Assembly (NCBI GenBank): GCA_003345555.1
Contig: PRDJ01000015.1
Location: 1 to 6,752 of the forward strand
Direction of reading: 5' to 3'
DNA: 6,752 bases
Source of the DNA: Candidatus Thorarchaeota archaeon
GTDB lineage: Archaea > Asgardarchaeota > Thorarchaeia > Thorarchaeales > Thorarchaeaceae
Numbering within the stretch: position 1 is the stretch's first letter; each line of letters opens with the position of its first letter. The notes beneath the pieces were generated by a model. That model made no database searches, was not told the origin of the DNA, and was given only the letters and a program-made list of their open reading frames with translations. A program made the position numbers and the translations under genes. Shown in pieces: positions 1-6,466 of the stretch.

Positions 1-330
1 ACATGGTTCGGGGACACAGTCCGGGGCGAGTTCAGGTTGGCGCTTTCGCTATTGCACCGCATGGTTTCACTGACCGACAGACAAATCCTGATTTCCCGAC
101 ATGCGGCAGAAGCTTTTACCTACGGCAGGAGTATTCTCAAGGAGTCTGTAATGAAGATTGAACCGGGCCTGCAGAGGGGGCAGCAGGTCCTTGTTTTGAA
201 TATGGATGGAGACTGCTTGGGACTGGCAGAACTCTCGGTGGATTCGGGGAAGCTTCACGCTCTGTCTCCGCACGAGCTTGTGGCGAAGAATCAGATGGAT
301 ATTGGCTGGTACCTTCGTCGTTTCAGCTAG
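1..330 (+). CDS. nip7: NIP7/UPF0113-family PUA-domain RNA-binding protein (ribosome biogenesis), 5'-truncated by the window edge
   Basis: Frame 1 is open from base 1 (TWFGDTVRGEFRLALSLL...), so TTG37 is probably not the start. PUA-like segment ISRHAAEAFTYGRSILKESV...RGQQVLVLNMDGDCLGLA, then C-terminal KNQMDIGWYLRR, typical of archaeal NIP7 homologs. Stop TAG at 328-330. Confidence 0.8.
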   Translation, partial: TWFGDTVRGEFRLALSLLHRMVSLTDRQILISRHAAEAFTYGRSILKESVMKIEPGLQRGQQVLVLNMDGDCLGLAELSVDSGKLHALSPHELVAKNQMDIGWYLRRFS

Positions 331-1076
331 ACAAACATGTCAGATGATCTATCGTCAGACTCGATGCTCTTCCGCATCTTTTCCAGTCGTTCGATCTCTT
401 TGCTCTCTTCAAGCAGCTGATCTACGTCTGCTTTGATGCCATATACCTGGTTTATCTTCTCCAGCATCACAGCTGCAGACCTAGGATCAGGACGACCACG
501 TGTGGCATATGTCAGAAGACCAATTGCCGGTATATCACGCATCTCAAGTTCGGCAAGAAGAAGTGCCAAGGGACCAGCGACAAACAGACCCTCTTCAAGC
601 AATGGCACAGACCACTTGCTGAGATTCTCTTTGTATGCAGTCGTCGGCACGCAACGCATATCATCGTCTTCTTCTTTGAAGCTCGAATCCAAGCCGCCAA
701 GGAGAAGCACTTCAGAGAACCTGCACTCTACGATCCACTTTGCCAGATGGTCTATCCATGACCACTGCTCAGATTGATGAGGCTGAAACCGCGGAACTAG
801 GAAAATCATGTCACCTTCTTTGTAATAGTATATCTCGAATGGCAGAATCAGTCGCTCGTTTTCCATGGATACAAACAGTGGTAGCATGTCGCTCTTGATG
901 AAGCCCACTCGTTCGGCGTTGAGGGTCCGAGTTAGGTGGGCTGTGCTTAGGAAACCCACTTCACCAAGCCCATGAAAGCCGCAGACGAATGTCGACCCGG
1001 GCTTTATTTCAAAGCCATCTTTCAGTATTATGTCGAAAACTGAGTCTCTGGTTGCTACGAATGCCATTGATTCCAT
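327..1076 (-). CDS. PAC2-family (PbaA/PbaB-like) proteasome assembly chaperone/activator
   Basis: Family motifs: GFHGLGEVGFLSTAHL (GFPGxGxVG-like), VLLLGGL, GLFVAGPLALLL, and RPDPRSAA before a C-terminal helix. C-terminus is DMFV. SD-like GAGGT (1081-1077, minus) abuts ATG1076 but lies 9 nt from ATG1067, so the true start may be 1067. Confidence 0.85.
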   Translation of the reverse strand: MESMAFVATRDSVFDIILKDGFEIKPGSTFVCGFHGLGEVGFLSTAHLTRTLNAERVGFIKSDMLPLFVSMENERLILPFEIYYYKEGDMIFLVPRFQPHQSEQWSWIDHLAKWIVECRFSEVLLLGGLDSSFKEEDDDMRCVPTTAYKENLSKWSVPLLEEGLFVAGPLALLLAELEMRDIPAIGLLTYATRGRPDPRSAAVMLEKINQVYGIKADVDQLLEESKEIERLEKMRKSIESDDRSSDMFV

Positions 1077-1285: not shown

Positions 1286-1933
1286 CTAGGAGGGTCGTTG
1301 CGAGAACAGCCGAGTCTTCGCCAAGTCCCGCTTAAGTTCCTTCGCTTCCTTCGCCTTCTTGACTTCCGGCTCTTTCCTCTTCAGGGCATCACTGACGGTC
1401 TTGCCAAGAACCTCTTTTGAGACCAGCAAAGTCACCTTGTCGCCTATCGATGCAATGGTAGTGGCGGGCACGATTACGTCGATATCCCTCTTAATGCCTG
1501 CTGACTCTAGGTGCTCTTCGATGAAACTACCGCCCACAATCAATGAAGCAGAACCATCCATGTCAAAATGAATATCCACAGTGTGACCTACCTTTGCTCC
1601 GTCCTTGTCAACGATTTCCAGCTTCTGAATCTTGGATAGGCGAATCTCATTGTTCTTGATAGAGCCTTTGTCCAAAGTCGTCTTTAGGCTGTTTGCAGTT
1701 GTGTCCAGATACACTTTGTCGCCCATTTTCTTGATGAGACTAGCAGTGAAGACAGGGTCACGGTCAGGTCGTATCTTCACTGATTCAAGGAACTCTTCCC
1801 ATGAAGGGCCAGCGAGGACGAATTGTGATAACTTGAGGGACTTGTCAAATGTGAATGTCAAGTCGCCTATGTGGCCGATCTTGCGACCTGTTGAATCTAC
1901 AACATCTTTCTTTTTCAGTTCACTGCATTTCAT
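1286..1933 (-). CDS. Tandem (two-domain) PRC-barrel protein with a basic C-terminal tail
   Basis: Two alignable repeats: MKCSELKKKDVVDSTGRKIGHIGDLTF...IKKMGDKVYL and IRLSKIQKLEIVDKDGAKVGHTVDIHF...IASIGDKVTL. Both match the PRC-barrel pattern (S-x-L-x-x-x-x-V-x-D-x-x-G-x-x-I-G-x-V-x-D; end I-x-x-I-G-D-x-V). ATG1933 is chosen because homology begins there; ATG1951 and GTG1969 are alternatives. Confidence 0.8.
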   Translation of the reverse strand: MKCSELKKKDVVDSTGRKIGHIGDLTFTFDKSLKLSQFVLAGPSWEEFLESVKIRPDRDPVFTASLIKKMGDKVYLDTTANSLKTTLDKGSIKNNEIRLSKIQKLEIVDKDGAKVGHTVDIHFDMDGSASLIVGGSFIEEHLESAGIKRDIDVIVPATTIASIGDKVTLLVSKEVLGKTVSDALKRKEPEVKKAKEAKELKRDLAKTRLFSQRPS

Positions 1934-1987
1934 TGACCCTGAGATTTCCATACAGACCACTAAGCGCACTGCAGGAACAGAGAGGAC

Positions 1988-2155: not shown

Positions 2156-4375
2156 TTGAGTACGCTGAGGGAACTGGAACTTGAGCGGGTATCTCCGCTC
2201 TTGTTGGAAGTTCTGCGAAAGCAAGGTCTTGCTTCTCTATCGGCTTTTCAAACCGCGGCCCTAAATGGTGGTATTCTCAGAGGCACTAGTCAGCTCCTTG
2301 TGTCCTATGATTATGATGAAGCCTACCAAATCGCCGAGATAGGCCTGCTCAATAGACTCCTCGCAGACTATAGGGCAAAGGCCTTGGTTTTGTGTCCAAA
2401 CCCCAACCAAGCTGAGAGAAGGTTCTCTCTGCTAAACCAGAAGTGTAGGCAACTTGGTATCGAAGCATCGGAAGTTATACGCAGGCGTACTGCGATCGGA
2501 CATGACTGGACAAAGGGACGGGTTATCGTTGGTACCTATGGGTCGATGAATATCGCATTGAATACCCACACCGAGATACTGAAGGATGTGCAGCTCGTAC
2601 TAATCGAGCGTCTAGACCTCATCGGCCTGCCGGAAACCGGTGCTGTGCTCGAGGCCGCACTCGTGAATACAATGAGCCACAATCAAGTCGTGCAATACAT
2701 AGGGGTGCTGCCTCCGGTTGCGGATTTGAAGGATTTGAGCGTCTGGCTTCATTCGGATATAGTAGAAGATACAAAGCCAGAAGTGAAACGTATCTTCAGC
2801 GTGAAGGCATTCAGCAGCGTGAAGGAATCCCTAGCGGATCTGACTGAGTTCATTCACTATCGTCGCGGCCAGACGATGATACTCTGTTCAACCATAGGCA
2901 CATGCCAAGAACTTGCGTCTCAGCTAGCGAGTCCACAGGACGAGAGCACTTCCTCATTCCTCGACCTCAAGCTGACGCCAGCTCAGCGTGATGACTTGAA
3001 CCAGCTCGCGAGACTAGTCTTGGAGAGATATTCTGGTTGTGAGATGACTCGTAGACTAGCAGCCATAATCCCGAAAGGCGTTGCATTTTTGCATGAAGGA
3101 GTGTCGAGAGTCCACAGGCGAGCGATTTCGGCATCCTGGAACGAGGATGTGCTTCCAGTAGTCGTCATGCCTACGAGGTTTGCCATTGCCAGCGGGCTGA
3201 GAGCAACGGTCATCTTCCTCATTGGTATCTTCATGCGCGACCTTAGCATGGATATCGTTGGAGAAGAGAACCCGACTATGTTCTCAGAGTGGCAGTTCAA
3301 TGATGTGATGCAATCAGGAGGCAGACCGGGAAAAGATAACGAGGCATTTGCGATTGTAGTGGTTGAAAACGAATCCGAAAGGAAAATGGTACTAAGCAAG
3401 TACTTCGTAACGGATTCGGAGGGAGACATACGACCGCGACTTGGAGAAGTCGACAGCTCAATGGACAATCCAGAGAACATACAGGATCTCGTAATCAGGC
3501 AGCTCTGTGCAGAAAGGAATACAACGGAGGACCCTCTTGAAATCATAAGCCGAACATATTGGGCTGCTAAGAACCGGGCCAAAGGAATAGCCCGGGACAC
3601 AGGAACACTCGTCGGCGATTCATCCATCGAGGATCTTGTCGCACTCCGCGCCACGAAGTCGACTTTTAAGCGTGCTGACGAAATACCTGATTCGAGTGTC
3701 AGGGTCGTATCCATGACACCTACAAAGATAGAAGGGCTCATACATAGCGGCACTAGGGAAATGTGGCACTATGTGACCCTGAAATCAGACGAAGGAGTGT
3801 CTTGCTCCTGTGAGTCTTGGAAGTACCAAGGGATTAGGGACCATAGACTATGCAAGCATTTGGCCAAGTTCTGCACGTTCGCTCTCAGAGATGATGAAAC
3901 CAAGCCATACGCGAGGCCAATCATAGGTCAGGCCCTCCGTGGGCTTAGCATAGTTGATAAGATGGAACGAGAGGGTCTGGTAGCAAGAGATGCAAAGGGC
4001 CTGAAGTGCACAAGCCTTGGTGAGGGTCTGGCGGCTCTCGGGGTTCCAGTTCGAGATGCCGAGAAAGTCATGAGATCTCTCTCGAAGAAATCGAGCAGAC
4101 TCAGGGACCTCCTCCCCAGTGTGACAGCAGCGAGGACAGGACTGCCCGAGGATTTAGTAAAACGATGTTATGACTCGATTCCATCAAAGGATATTGAACA
4201 TGCAATCAAATGCGAGACAGATATGCCGGGAATCGTCGAGAACGTCTTTGAAGAACTTCACTATGTTAACTCGATTGTGTTGAGACTCACCACGAGCGAT
4301 ACACGGCGAGGACTCAACAAGGAAAGCTTCGAACTACAGAAGCATCTATCATCAATGCTGACAGAAATCAGCTAA
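2156..4375 (+). CDS. Hel308/Ski2-like SF2 helicase-fold protein with degenerate ATPase motifs (predicted inactive) and an inserted SWIM zinc finger
   Basis: Collinear with Hel308 by eye: GLASLSAFQ (Q motif), KALVLCP (Ia), RVIVGTY (Ib), DVQLVLIERLDLIG (II), YIGVLPPVADLKDLSVWL (III), GQTMILCS (IV), KGVAFLHEGV, VVVMPTRFA (V), GGRPGKD (VI), and winged-helix segments IISRTYWA and EGLV...KCTSLG. SWIM motif C550-x-C552-x13-C566-x-H568. TTG start with SD-like AGGGGCTGA (2141-2149); an in-frame TGA at 2147 bounds the ORF. Confidence 0.85.
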   Translation: MSTLRELELERVSPLLLEVLRKQGLASLSAFQTAALNGGILRGTSQLLVSYDYDEAYQIAEIGLLNRLLADYRAKALVLCPNPNQAERRFSLLNQKCRQLGIEASEVIRRRTAIGHDWTKGRVIVGTYGSMNIALNTHTEILKDVQLVLIERLDLIGLPETGAVLEAALVNTMSHNQVVQYIGVLPPVADLKDLSVWLHSDIVEDTKPEVKRIFSVKAFSSVKESLADLTEFIHYRRGQTMILCSTIGTCQELASQLASPQDESTSSFLDLKLTPAQRDDLNQLARLVLERYSGCEMTRRLAAIIPKGVAFLHEGVSRVHRRAISASWNEDVLPVVVMPTRFAIASGLRATVIFLIGIFMRDLSMDIVGEENPTMFSEWQFNDVMQSGGRPGKDNEAFAIVVVENESERKMVLSKYFVTDSEGDIRPRLGEVDSSMDNPENIQDLVIRQLCAERNTTEDPLEIISRTYWAAKNRAKGIARDTGTLVGDSSIEDLVALRATKSTFKRADEIPDSSVRVVSMTPTKIEGLIHSGTREMWHYVTLKSDEGVSCSCESWKYQGIRDHRLCKHLAKFCTFALRDDETKPYARPIIGQALRGLSIVDKMEREGLVARDAKGLKCTSLGEGLAALGVPVRDAEKVMRSLSKKSSRLRDLLPSVTAARTGLPEDLVKRCYDSIPSKDIEHAIKCETDMPGIVENVFEELHYVNSIVLRLTTSDTRRGLNKESFELQKHLSSMLTEIS
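3803..3859 (+). other. SWIM zinc-finger motif (CxC-x13-CxH) within the helicase-like CDS
   Basis: CSCESWKYQGIRDHRLCKH, preceded by predicted beta-strands IEGLIHSG and WHYVTL, as in SWIM domains. Confidence 0.85.
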
Positions 4376-4376
4376 G

Positions 4377-4383
4377 TTTTTTT
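4377..4383 (+). terminator. Putative archaeal oligo-T terminator
   Basis: T7 tract begins 1 nt after the TAA stop (4373-4375). Oligo-U tracts are established archaeal terminators. Confidence 0.5.
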
Positions 4384-4450
4384 ACTCCGGAGAATCCGCC
4401 CCCTCTCCAAGAACACCAGTGCTCCTTCCCGTCAGAAGGTGGTGGAATCC

Positions 4451-5596
4451 ATGAAGCTCTACGAAATGGAGGCAAAGGAGATCTTCCGCTCGTTCAATAT
4501 AACGACACCAGCAGGATACGCGGCCAAGACTCCTGAAGAAGCGAGAAAACGGGCGACCGAGATTGGAAAGCCGGTTGCTGTCAAGGCACAGGTCTTGGCT
4601 GGAAAGAGAGGAAAGGCAGGAGGAATCAAGTTCGCTGATACTCCGGACCAAGCAGAAGCGGCTGCAAGAGACATACTTGGGATGAGAATCAGCGACCTGC
4701 CTGTGGAGGCAGTCCTTGTCGAAGAAAAGCTGGACATTCAGCAAGAGATCTATATTGGAATCACTGTCGACCGAAACGAACGCAAGTATGTCGTAATAGG
4801 GAGTGCCGCCGGGGGGATGTCAATAGAAGAACTCGCGGTAAAGAGCCCCGAGAAGATAGTGAAGATGTACGTTGATCCTATGCTGGGATTCCAATCATAC
4901 GAAGCACAGGAAATGGCTGTAGCGATGGGCTTTCCCAGCAAGATGGTCCGTTCTGTGGCGGGATTCATACTAGGATTGTGGAACGTAGCAGATGCCTACG
5001 ATGCTGAACTCACTGAGATAAATCCACTAATCCTCACTAAGGACGGACGGCTCCTAGCTGCAGATGCGCGCCTCAATATTGATGACAGCGCACTTTACAG
5101 ACACAAGAAGCTAATAGACGGAATAAAGCGCAAACCAGCTGAGCAAAACGAAAGAGAGAGGCTCGCGGCCGAGCATGATATGGCATACGTGGAACTTGAT
5201 GGCAACATTGCATGTATCTGCAATGGAGCAGGTCTGACCATGGCAACACTTGATGCGGTGGCACTTCATGGTGGAAATGCAAGCACATTCCTAGACCTAG
5301 GCGGCGGAGCTGACGCGGAAAGGGTCAAGAAAGGTATCGAGATAGCTCTGATGTATCCAAACGTGAGAGCTATTCTTGTCAATATCATGGGGGGCATAAC
5401 AAGGTGCGACGAGGTTGCAAAGGGTGTGGTCGCAGCTCGCCAAGAGAGGGGAGTCAGTATTCCGATGGTCATACGGATGGTTGGCACCAACGAAAAACAG
5501 GGCCAAGAGATACTCAGCAGTGCCGGGATTCCCTTTCTCAAGACCATGGAAGAAGCTGCTGAGCGCGTAGTGCAACTAACCAAGGAGGTCGCGTAA
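4451..5596 (+). CDS. sucC: Succinyl-CoA synthetase (succinate--CoA ligase, ADP-forming) beta subunit
   Basis: MKLYEMEAKE start; ATP-grasp motifs KAQVLAGKRGKAGGIK, EINPL and DARLNIDDSALYRH; ligase domain GNIACICNGAGLTMATLD, FLDLGGGA, NIMGGITRCD, RMVGTN. ATG4451 follows SD-like AGGTGGTGG (4437-4445). Confidence 0.93.
   Translation: MKLYEMEAKEIFRSFNITTPAGYAAKTPEEARKRATEIGKPVAVKAQVLAGKRGKAGGIKFADTPDQAEAAARDILGMRISDLPVEAVLVEEKLDIQQEIYIGITVDRNERKYVVIGSAAGGMSIEELAVKSPEKIVKMYVDPMLGFQSYEAQEMAVAMGFPSKMVRSVAGFILGLWNVADAYDAELTEINPLILTKDGRLLAADARLNIDDSALYRHKKLIDGIKRKPAEQNERERLAAEHDMAYVELDGNIACICNGAGLTMATLDAVALHGGNASTFLDLGGGADAERVKKGIEIALMYPNVRAILVNIMGGITRCDEVAKGVVAARQERGVSIPMVIRMVGTNEKQGQEILSSAGIPFLKTMEEAAERVVQLTKEVA
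5582..5589 (+). promoter_or_regulatory. Shine-Dalgarno site of sucD, inside the end of sucC
   Basis: AAGGAGGT lies 7 nt upstream of ATG5597. sucC TAA and sucD ATG abut (TAAATG), indicating an operon with translational coupling. Confidence 0.75.
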
Positions 5597-6466
5597 ATGG
5601 CAGTGCTCGTTGATAAGAAAACGAGAGTCATCGTGCAAGGAATCACGGGTACGCAGGGCACTTTCCATGCGACTGCGATGCTCGACTATGGCACGAAAGT
5701 TGTTGCAGGCACGAGCCCGGGCAAGGGCGGCACAGACATCAAGGGTATACCTGTCTATGATACCGTTAAGGAAGCCAAGAAGGCACAAGATGCAACTGCG
5801 TCCATAATATTCGTGCCTGCCGCTTTCGCTGCAGACGCGGCCCTGGAAGCCATTTCCCAAGGCTTGAACCCCGTAGTAGTAATCACTGAGCATCTCCCTG
5901 TCAAGGATGAGATTCGTGTCATCCACGTAGCTTTCGAACGGGGAATCACCATAATCGGGCCTAATACTCCGGGCATAATCACTCCGAAAGCGAAACAGAA
6001 GGTTGGCATCATGCCGGGGCACGTGTTTGCGCCAGGCAACGTCGGCCTTATGTCACGCAGTGGTACACTAACATACGAGATTGCCGCTGGGATGACTCTG
6101 GCTGGCATCGGGATTTCGACTGCAATCGGATTGGGTGGAGACCCATGTGTCGGCCTGACACCGACAGAAGGATTGAAGCTCTTCAGGAAGGACAAGGAAA
6201 CAAAGGCAATCGTTCTCGTGGGAGAAATAGGAGGAGATGCAGAAGAGAGAGCGGCTGCATACATCAAAGAAGGCTTCGATCTGCCGGTCGTCGCATTCAT
6301 TGCTGGAAGAACAGCCCCTGCCGGCAAGAGAATGGGACATGCGGGAGCTATCATCAGCGGTAGTACCGGCACAGCAGAGGCGAAGATTAGGGCCCTTGAG
6401 GATGCCGGAGTCGCTGTTGCGAAAAGACCCAGTGAGGTGCCTCAGCTCCTGAAGAAGCTCATGTGA
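5597..6466 (+). CDS. sucD: Succinyl-CoA synthetase alpha subunit
   Basis: TRVIVQGITG..GTFH, PGKGG, IIGPNTPG, SRSGTLTYE, GLGGDP, GEIGG and the phospho-histidine motif RMGHAGA. Confidence 0.95.
   Translation: MAVLVDKKTRVIVQGITGTQGTFHATAMLDYGTKVVAGTSPGKGGTDIKGIPVYDTVKEAKKAQDATASIIFVPAAFAADAALEAISQGLNPVVVITEHLPVKDEIRVIHVAFERGITIIGPNTPGIITPKAKQKVGIMPGHVFAPGNVGLMSRSGTLTYEIAAGMTLAGIGISTAIGLGGDPCVGLTPTEGLKLFRKDKETKAIVLVGEIGGDAEERAAAYIKEGFDLPVVAFIAGRTAPAGKRMGHAGAIISGSTGTAEAKIRALEDAGVAVAKRPSEVPQLLKKLM

Follow-up and report, generated by a model that had tools for sequence, protein, structure and literature searches.

A Thorarchaeia Hel308-like pseudo-helicase with a SWIM module inserted in its predicted winged helix

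The largest gene in the stretch of DNA analysed here (the window, 6,752 nucleotides (nt) of contig PRDJ01000015.1 from a Candidatus Thorarchaeota archaeon, assembly GCA_003345555.1) encodes a Hel308-like protein that has lost the canonical motifs of a helicase motor and carries a SWIM zinc-finger module inside its winged-helix domain. In the list of open reading frames (ORFs) the gene occupies positions 2156..4375 of the + strand, stop codon included, begins with TTG, and specifies 739 amino acids (aa). In eukaryotes, Hel308/HELQ helicases are regulators of recombination, as are the SWIM proteins Shu2/SWS1, and no known organisms are more closely related to the eukaryotic host than Asgard archaea. 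The protein belongs to a motor-dead lineage that has become fixed, under strong constraint, in a single archaeal family, and its SWIM insert, judged by sequence comparison, is a trait of an Asgard-wide clade of Hel308-like proteins and is not special to this protein. We propose that the protein could serve as an ATP-independent docking scaffold or adaptor built on a dead Hel308 ring with a SWIM module in the winged helix, a reading to which we assign a probability of about 0.5.

Kinship with Hel308 is seen in both sequence and predicted fold. By sequence, aa 14-431 match the Hel308 structure 2va8 with an E-value (E) of 1e-17, while the match to Hjm (2zj2) covers aa 11-473 with E 1.8e-17. The NCBIfam Hel308 profile NF040935 scores 86.2 bits over profile positions 14-428 (86.6 bits for the same protein in the genome search), short of its cut-off of 1200 bits; a separate, canonical Hel308-like gene on contig C30 of the same genome scores 608 bits. 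An AlphaFold2 model of the full protein, built on an alignment of 38 orthologues, has a predicted local distance difference test score (pLDDT) of 84 and a predicted template modelling score (pTM) of 0.84, and retains the fold of RecA1, RecA2, the winged helix, and the ratchet domain. VIA-align places the model on Hel308 9b15_B with a Z score (Z) of 29.5 (571 residues aligned, range 5..737) and on Hjm 2zj2 with Z 29.0 (579 residues aligned), the matches overall spanning residues 5..738. Foldseek agrees with the Hel308 fold (best E 1.5e-25). The fold alignments stop at Hel308/Hjm residues 640-657, and aa 620-739 form a shortened domain 4. Hjm has an HHH_5 domain at residues 648-699, but Pfam did not find HHH_5 in the protein, and the Hjm alignment stops before it. 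Pfam recognises a single domain in the protein, SWIM (PF04434), with no match to DEAD or Helicase_C at E ≤ 0.1.

The motor motifs are replaced throughout the dead lineage. Among 13 dead orthologues, none has GK[TS] in motif I or DExH in motif II, the latter reading [ED]R[LI]D in all 13; SAT of motif III is replaced by xPP and the first arginine of motif VI is gone, while the Q-motif glutamine is kept in 13/13. Canonical Hel308 proteins (n=12), active Thorarchaeia paralogues that also carry SWIM (n=8), and other SWIM helicases (n=24) all have GK[TS]. Motif II is DExH in all 12 canonical proteins, DExH/Q in all 8 paralogues, and mostly DExH/Q in the remaining 24; SAT is present in 12, 8, and 14 of these, respectively, and motif VI is intact in all of the first two groups and mostly intact in the third. 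Because the P-loop lysine, the DExH carboxylates, and the first motif-VI arginine are lost, ATP hydrolysis of the superfamily 2 (SF2) type is very unlikely. The original prediction, made from the sequence of the window, had called the protein non-catalytic, and motif loss in 13/13 orthologues bears this out. The replacement residues D52, E55, R152, and D154 are invariant in the 38-orthologue alignment.

The ratio of nonsynonymous to synonymous substitution rates (dN/dS), calculated from two unsaturated pairs, is 0.069 and 0.123 for the whole gene, 0.079 and 0.120 for the former motor domains (aa 1-432), and 0.016 and 0.058 for the SWIM core (aa 513-580). Invariant columns make up 25/68 of the SWIM core versus 88/739 of the whole protein. 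Ranked by conservation, the top eight 30-residue segments all start at aa 540-548. The reading frame is intact and without stops in the window and in all seven related loci, which are full length and 54-75% identical. These values indicate that the whole protein is under purifying selection and the SWIM core most of all. Selection on the SWIM had been suggested from its intact zinc ligands, and it is at the SWIM core that both the dN/dS values of 0.016-0.058 and the 25/68 invariant columns point to the strongest constraint.

The insert is a genuine SWIM module of ~95-105 aa. The Pfam SWIM profile matches aa 545-570 at E 0.0033 with 17.4 bits, against a cut-off of 19.6 bits, and in the genome search it scores 19.1 bits, or 19.9 with neighbours (gathering cut-off 19.6). 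The cut-off is exceeded in the relatives P0140 (27.7 bits) and P0135 (21.5 bits). C550, C552, C566, and H568 are the sole invariant columns of the module, present in 40/40 sequences with identity down to ~18%, and conservation of these predicted ligands is far beyond chance. A profile search of the protein's own genome found no other SWIM match above E 0.02.

In the model, RecA2 is followed by a helix at aa 439-450, helices at 460-465 and 468-475, a disordered stretch at 479-488, the module at 491-578 (two short helices, four strands, then a helix), a helix at 583-605, and a hairpin with strands at 609-612 and 615-618. When the protein (P0001) was aligned with canonical Hel308 by MAFFT, residues 482-595 (114 aa) had no partner in Hjm, and this unpartnered stretch drops between Hjm residues 455 and 456, within Hjm's match at 378-470 to HTH_61, a Pfam profile for winged helices. 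The linker at aa 477-489 is the least conserved stretch, with a majority frequency of 0.38. Model topology and the 114-residue stretch without an Hjm partner therefore place the SWIM module after the second and before the third helix of the winged helix, and secondary structure together with the VIA alignment to Hel308 suggests that the two halves of the winged helix would contact each other. This is where the original prediction had put it, as a complete CxC-x13-CxH SWIM splitting a Hel308 winged helix. The motif is indeed complete, at aa 550-568 with n=13 between the ligand pairs, and every string quoted in support lies at its claimed residues (DLVIRQL at 444-450, IISRTYWA at 463-470, DKMEREGLV at 601-609, KCTSLGEGLAALGV at 617-630, and CSCESWKYQGIRDHRLCKH at 550-568). 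The insert itself stands, but the boundaries given for it, aa 471-595 of the 739-aa ORF (nt 3566-3940), were slightly generous and become ~477-582 by structure.

When folded alone from a 40-sequence alignment (aa 481-586), the module gave a model with a pLDDT of 91.7. A wide VIA search with this model over 48,161 chains returned ZSWIM8 (9rwz_M) at Z 7.9, with 92 residues aligned, a root-mean-square deviation of 5.1 Å, and 16% identity; the match places model residues 1..104 on chain residues 98..216, and the next-best row, at Z 4.7, is ~3 units lower. According to its entry title, structure 9rwz shows ZSWIM8 in a complex with CUL3 and AGO2. Shu2 in the Shu1:Shu2 structure (6dex_B) reached Z 4.5 with 87 residues aligned, level with unrelated sulfatases and polo boxes at Z 4.1-4.7. 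Foldseek of the isolated module against the PDB gave nothing at E ≤ 0.001, with ZSWIM8 at rank 2 and E 0.22, and a search of the ESM Atlas with aa 486-585 found SWIM clusters at a score of 0.85, which is below the reliable level and serves as a lead only. A phmmer search of PDB sequences with aa 471-595 yielded ELYS, an uncharacterised protein, and cgh-1 at E 0.25-0.92, which we take as chance matches. Standalone relatives of the module with 58-186 aa were not found, nor were longer or fused forms with 1295-3695 aa, the latter being weak evidence.

A word-indexed search with the protein retrieved 178 hits. Identity among the 120 listed is 51-75% and their lengths are 654-783 aa; almost all of the named ones among them are Thorarchaeota proteins annotated as 'hypothetical protein'. 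When cluster representatives were searched exhaustively, 419 reached E ≤ 0.001. Among the 149 hits listed after the first (P0002), CxC..CxH occurs in 46, comprising 6 Thorarchaeia-type fragments and 40 distant relatives (~24% identity) that have the motif at the same place as in the dead form. The sources named for the distant relatives are Loki, Heimdall, Odin, Baldr, Jord, Hod, Ran, and 'Asgardarchaeia' lineages, with Promethearchaeum syntrophicum QEE16306.1 (P0178) among the Loki sequences. Their Pfam matches are to DEAD, to Helicase_C, to the archaeal domain 4, and in some cases to HHH_5, and 34/35 of the full-length ones have a P-loop within their first 140 residues. Because most SWIM-bearing relatives have intact motors, the insertion predates motor loss. 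The original prediction had looked to active helicases with the same insertion to order these events; such helicases were found, making the insertion ancestral and motor loss the later event. One distant relative with SWIM, the 1100-aa metagenomic protein P0190, has SAP matches N-terminal to the helicase and CxC..CxH at residue 800.

Distribution within the phylum was sampled in 201 genomes, with the dead form called at E below ~1e-150 for whole genes. The dead form is present in 43/43 sampled genomes of the window's family, as well as in the window's own genome. Outside this family the sample contained only matches of ~24% identity.

The same family has a second SWIM helicase, with SPTGSGKT and DE[IV][QH] in 8/8 sequences fetched, which was found in 44/61 genomes searched and in 20/23 high-quality ones. 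Two queries did not find it in the window's own genome, which is 93% complete, so its absence is not shown. Within the same genus it is present in genome G155, present in two frames in G152, and was not found in G120. The G152 match (G152:C3:602309-604436) consists of overlapping frames of 316 and 480 aa and could reflect a frameshift, a broken gene, or an assembly error, and the match in G143 has one in-frame TAA.

The relationship between the two forms was analysed with a quick maximum-likelihood tree of 57 rows, followed by a reduced tree and an approximately unbiased (AU) test that used 28 of the 57 rows and the LG+G4 model without a mixture model, the tested group having been chosen once the first tree had been seen. 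SWIM-bearing proteins form one branch versus canonical Hel308, with a Shimodaira–Hasegawa-like approximate likelihood ratio test (SH-aLRT) value of 100 in both trees. The dead clade lies inside this SWIM clade, set apart by a stem of 1.6-1.8 changes per column (1.83 in the 57-row tree), and groups with the Hod, Ran, and Odin forms (SH-aLRT 94 with 57 rows and 99 in the reduced tree). Motifs of these Hod, Ran, and Odin forms are partly degenerate, with DETY, DDAQ, EECD, and DEFQ, and with GRAGN in motif VI. The AU test rejects a clade of the dead form with the active Thorarchaeia form (p 0.014), and their SWIM sequences differ strongly, with CSCESWKYQG..CKH in the dead form versus CSCG..CPH in the active one. 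The motor was lost after insertion of the SWIM module, on the branch leading to the dead form.

Active and dead forms also occupy different gene neighbourhoods. In 3/3 annotated loci, from a Thorarchaeia genome, a sister family, and a Jord-like genome (L042:3426-17998 in G027:C9; L048:5391-17481 in G112:C1; L046:4221-14287 in G038:C1), the active paralogue is part of a co-directional operon. This operon encodes a RadA-like protein (HHH_5+Rad51), small unknown proteins, an XPD-like helicase, a 758-790 aa protein without Pfam matches, and the SWIM helicase, and continues with an unknown protein of 503-514 aa, a KaiC/AAA_25-like ATPase, a Rad51-like protein, and an XPG_I nuclease. The operon's large unknown proteins are candidate SWIM ligands. 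The window's own genome encodes RadA, a RadA-like protein, and three RadB-like proteins, all on other contigs. Its second RadA-like gene (G000:C75:30457-33099; 358 aa, 254 bits to the RadA model NF003301) is 1.5 kb from a contig end, which may have truncated a recombination operon like that of the relatives.

The dead gene lies between a divergent PAC2 gene and sucC-sucD, the latter 63 nt downstream in the window. Upstream are genes for a Nip7-like PUA protein, an RsmB/NOP2-like methyltransferase, and a pyridoxal phosphate (PLP) enzyme, and within 8 kb downstream are genes for beta-CASP, Alba, TruD, and PTH2 proteins. This order is kept, by ORF layout, in the window and all seven related loci; Pfam annotation of neighbours is full in L008, L012, and L013 and covers one upstream gene each in L009 and L010, while L011 and L014 were compared by gene order and sizes. 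With Pfam on neighbours from 5/7 of these loci, no RadA paralogue was found within ~8 kb in the window or the seven loci. The PRC-barrel gene of the window (Table 1) has a counterpart at the same spot in L009 and L010, and no PRC match occurs there in L008, L012, or L013. The Nip7-like PUA gene (UPF0113) adjoins the RsmB/NOP2-like methyltransferase and PAC2 genes (window 1-1076; L008:4699-6951), an arrangement kept in the three annotated loci, and these Nip7-like and NOP2-like neighbours mirror the eukaryotic Nip7-Nop2 pairing. The sucC-sucD pair (window 4376-6466) follows the dead gene in all seven related loci by ORF layout, with Pfam matches in L008, L012, and L013, and in an Odin relative (L045:10374-12338) the helicase gene is followed after 30 nt by an aconitase gene. 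Tricarboxylic-acid-cycle enzymes are therefore encoded downstream in two lineages, which may be chance.

Taken as an adaptor, the dead protein would no longer hydrolyse ATP or translocate. Its Hel308 ring, consisting of RecA1, RecA2, the winged helix, and the shortened ratchet, could be held as a static holder of single-stranded nucleic acid, and the SWIM module projecting from the winged helix would offer a docking surface for a partner, more likely protein than DNA. SWIM proteins of solved structure dock other proteins, as described for Shu2 with Shu1 in an excerpt of PMC5727457 and, by the title of entry 9rwz, for ZSWIM8 with CUL3 and AGO2. The dead protein would thereby be an adaptor or regulator that works without ATP, most likely in the recombination and repair setting of its active relatives. 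Binding of nucleic acid is predicted from the retained fold of the model. Several observations weigh against this proposal. Acidic residues conserved where the P-loop used to be may indicate that the site has acquired a new ligand and is not empty. Domain 5 is missing, and the available part of a 2026 HELQ/Hel308 review ties this domain to DNA annealing (PMC13623763). The neighbours of the dead gene are housekeeping or RNA-related, with no repair gene among them; its nearest relatives, the Hod and Odin forms, are likewise outside recombination operons; and long-branch attraction may affect where the dead clade falls in the tree.

The original prediction went further, proposing a possible HELQ/Shu 'Rosetta stone' in which the SWIM would correspond to Shu2/SWS1 and recruit RadA or RadB-like paralogues, with the dead helicase as a recombination mediator. 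Eukaryotic precedents exist for both halves: the SWIM domain of Shu2 binds the Rad51 paralogue Shu1 (PMC5727457, in part) and HELQ binds the RAD51-paralogue complex BCDX2 (PMC13623763, in part). The window's genome also holds the RadA, RadA-like, and three RadB-like genes noted above, and Shu2 6dex_B is among the fold matches. The Shu2/SWS1 signature, as given in an excerpt of PMC6316741, is CxC..CxHxxA. At the third position after the histidine, alanine occurs in 6/8 active Thorarchaeia paralogues and 6/24 other Asgard SWIM helicases, but in 0/38 members of the dead clade, which have lysine in 31 and arginine in 7. A link between recombination and SWIM helicases is plausible for the family because the active lineage is in the operon with RadA-like and Rad51-like genes (3/3 loci) and has CxHxxA in 6/8 Thorarchaeia members. 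For the dead gene, however, the mediator proposal is not supported: its alanine is absent in 38/38, no RadA paralogue is nearby in the window or, with Pfam on neighbours from five of them, the seven related loci, the Shu2 fold match is weak, being level with unrelated sulfatases and well below the Z of 7.9 for ZSWIM8, and the clade groups with Hod, Odin, and Ran forms that are likewise outside recombination operons. A four-chain complex prediction of the SWIM module with the three RadB-like proteins scored 0.00 in two runs, which lacked controls and were unlike the calibration, and it weighs neither way. We consider the mediator unlikely. To decay of the gene, or to a still-active enzyme with an unconventional site, we give almost no weight, although all canonical motor motifs are replaced and the Q-motif glutamine is kept in 13/13: intact frames in eight loci, dN/dS of 0.07-0.12, and invariant replacement residues refute pseudogene decay, and loss of the P-loop lysine, the DExH carboxylate pair, and the first motif-VI arginine argues against activity.

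Two other roles fit parts of the same evidence. The dead helicase could hold RNA or recruit RNA-processing factors, with the insert in the role of the Mtr4/Ski2 arch, which is likewise an accessory module inserted in the winged helix of a Ski2-like helicase (PMC10946056, in part). Mtr4 chains are among the Foldseek matches (E ~1e-20), and the conserved RsmB/NOP2-like methyltransferase and Nip7-like PUA genes upstream, with beta-CASP, Alba, TruD, and PTH2 within 8 kb, would suit such a role. However, in sequence as in fold the protein comes nearest to enzymes acting on DNA, the helicases Hel308/Hjm and POLQ, active relatives adjoin DNA-repair genes, and the synteny is within one archaeal family, includes mixed functions (PAC2, sucCD, a PLP enzyme), and may be inherited gene order, making an RNA-side adaptor quite improbable. 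A dead copy might instead pair with the active SWIM helicase or compete with it for a shared SWIM ligand, in the manner of Brr2, whose inactive cassette regulates its active one. Both paralogues are common (43/43 sampled genomes for the dead form; 44/61, or 20/23 high-quality, for the active one), and the Brr2 C-terminal cassette (1304-2059) matches the model at Z 27-28.4, compared with 29.5 for Hel308. We take this cassette to be the inactive one of Brr2, with no unwinding of its own and acting as a regulatory platform. Against such a partnership, the SWIM sequences of the two paralogues are strongly different, the paralogues are not sisters in the tree, with the AU test (28 of 57 rows) rejecting their grouping at p 0.014, and no fused tandem form was seen among longer proteins, although this last point is weak evidence. 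This pseudo-enzyme partnership is rather improbable. Its fullest version, an undescribed two-protein system of Thorarchaeia in which an active SWIM motor is encoded with RadA paralogues, XPD, and an XPG-like nuclease while a universally retained dead copy regulates it or competes for its SWIM ligand, is similarly doubtful; if true, it would be a split archaeal counterpart of the active and inactive cassettes of Brr2 and might foreshadow the way HELQ, RAD51 paralogues, and SWIM proteins are linked in eukaryotes.

Table 1. Features of the window, with positions counted from its first nucleotide.
Feature	Position	Strand	Basis
Whole gene, Hel308-like pseudo-helicase, 739 aa	2156..4375	+	ORF list, Hel308 sequence and fold matches
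RecA1-like domain, dead motor, Q-motif Gln retained	2156..2770	+	Alignments; no Pfam DEAD at E ≤ 0.1
Motif I position, YDYDEAY	2306-2326	+	Alignments
Motif II position, IERLD	2603-2617	+	Alignments
RecA2-like domain, degenerate motif VI QSGGRPG, first Arg lost	2771..3451	+	Alignments
Winged-helix N-half, helices 1-2, aa 436-476	3461..3583	+	Model; aligns to Hjm 438-455
Variable low-confidence linker, aa 477-489	3584..3622	+	pLDDT <50 at 479-488
SWIM module, aa 490-582: two short helices, four-stranded sheet, zinc knuckle, helix	3623..3901	+	Models, ZSWIM8 fold match, Pfam SWIM
CxC-x13-CxH predicted zinc-ligand motif, C550, C552, C566, H568; CSCESWKYQGIRDHRLCKH	3803..3859	+	Position and conservation
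Winged-helix C-half, helix 3 and beta-hairpin wing, aa 583-619	3902..4012	+	Model; aligns to Hjm IRNILYFLLENEFI onward
Shortened domain 4, ratchet-like helices, without helix-hairpin-helix (HhH) domain 5	4013..4372	+	Fold alignments, no HHH_5
PGIVENVFEELHY within domain 4	4226-4264	+	
256-aa open frame antisense to the helicase gene, taken as a shadow frame	2983-3753	-	ORF list
PRC-barrel protein, 227 aa, two PRC matches, between PAC2 and the dead helicase	1286-1969	-	Pfam

Rfam and tRNA scans of the window gave no matches. An RNA-library contig from metatranscriptome run X11 (237 nt, at 2332-2569) lies on the helicase gene, but DNA carry-over is possible and we do not count it as expression. 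It lacks one base at 2543, has no other differences from the window, and has a depth of 3.3, the missing base probably being an assembly error. X11 also has contigs on neighbouring genes.

A full-text literature search, which subscription journals largely fell outside, found no paper joining SWIM with Hel308 or Ski2-like helicases in archaea. The accessible portion of a 2024 survey of archaeal Ski2-like helicases does not mention a SWIM-Hel308 architecture, and that of the 2026 HELQ/Hel308 review contains zero mentions of SWIM or zinc (PMC13623763). The Asgard-wide clade of Hel308-like proteins with a winged-helix SWIM includes one lineage encoded with RadA paralogues and another that is motor-dead. 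This arrangement provides a natural separation of function, with the dead copy able to reveal the function of a SWIM scaffold in the absence of translocation, and a stable inactive bait of this kind could be used to fish out the SWIM ligand. The protein is also a clean addition to the short list of conserved pseudo-helicases.

Compared with known systems, the protein shares the four-domain ring of archaeal Hel308/Hjm (2p6r, 2va8, 2zj2/2zj5/2zj8, 9b15) and the POLQ helicase domain. It differs from Hel308/Hjm in being without the P-loop, DExH, SAT, and the first motif-VI arginine, and in having a winged-helix insert of ~105 aa, a shortened domain 4, and no HhH domain 5. The Brr2 C-terminal cassette is likewise of Hel308 type, but is a eukaryotic, spliceosomal tandem fusion with a full Sec63 unit and no SWIM. 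The arch of Mtr4/Ski2 (stalk/KOW) is also an accessory insert in a winged helix; it consists of a stalk and beta-barrel with no zinc finger, and its enzymes are active RNA helicases. The SWIM region of ZSWIM8 (9rwz_M) is the best fold match of the isolated module, but ZSWIM8 is a eukaryotic substrate receptor of a cullin ligase and, unlike this protein, has no helicase context. Shu2/SWS1 proteins have in common with the module a CxC..CxH SWIM zinc finger, at a weak fold match, but are small standalone proteins that bind Rad51 paralogues, and yeast Shu2 has n = 59 residues between its ligand pairs (PMC5727457, in part) versus 13 in the dead helicase. The active Asgard SWIM-bearing Hel308-like helicases (QEE16306.1; Thorarchaeia loci L022-L029) have the insert at the same position with invariant ligands, and most of them are likewise without domain 5. 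They are ~24% identical to the dead form and, in contrast to it, keep GK[TS] in 32/32 and mostly DExH/Q.

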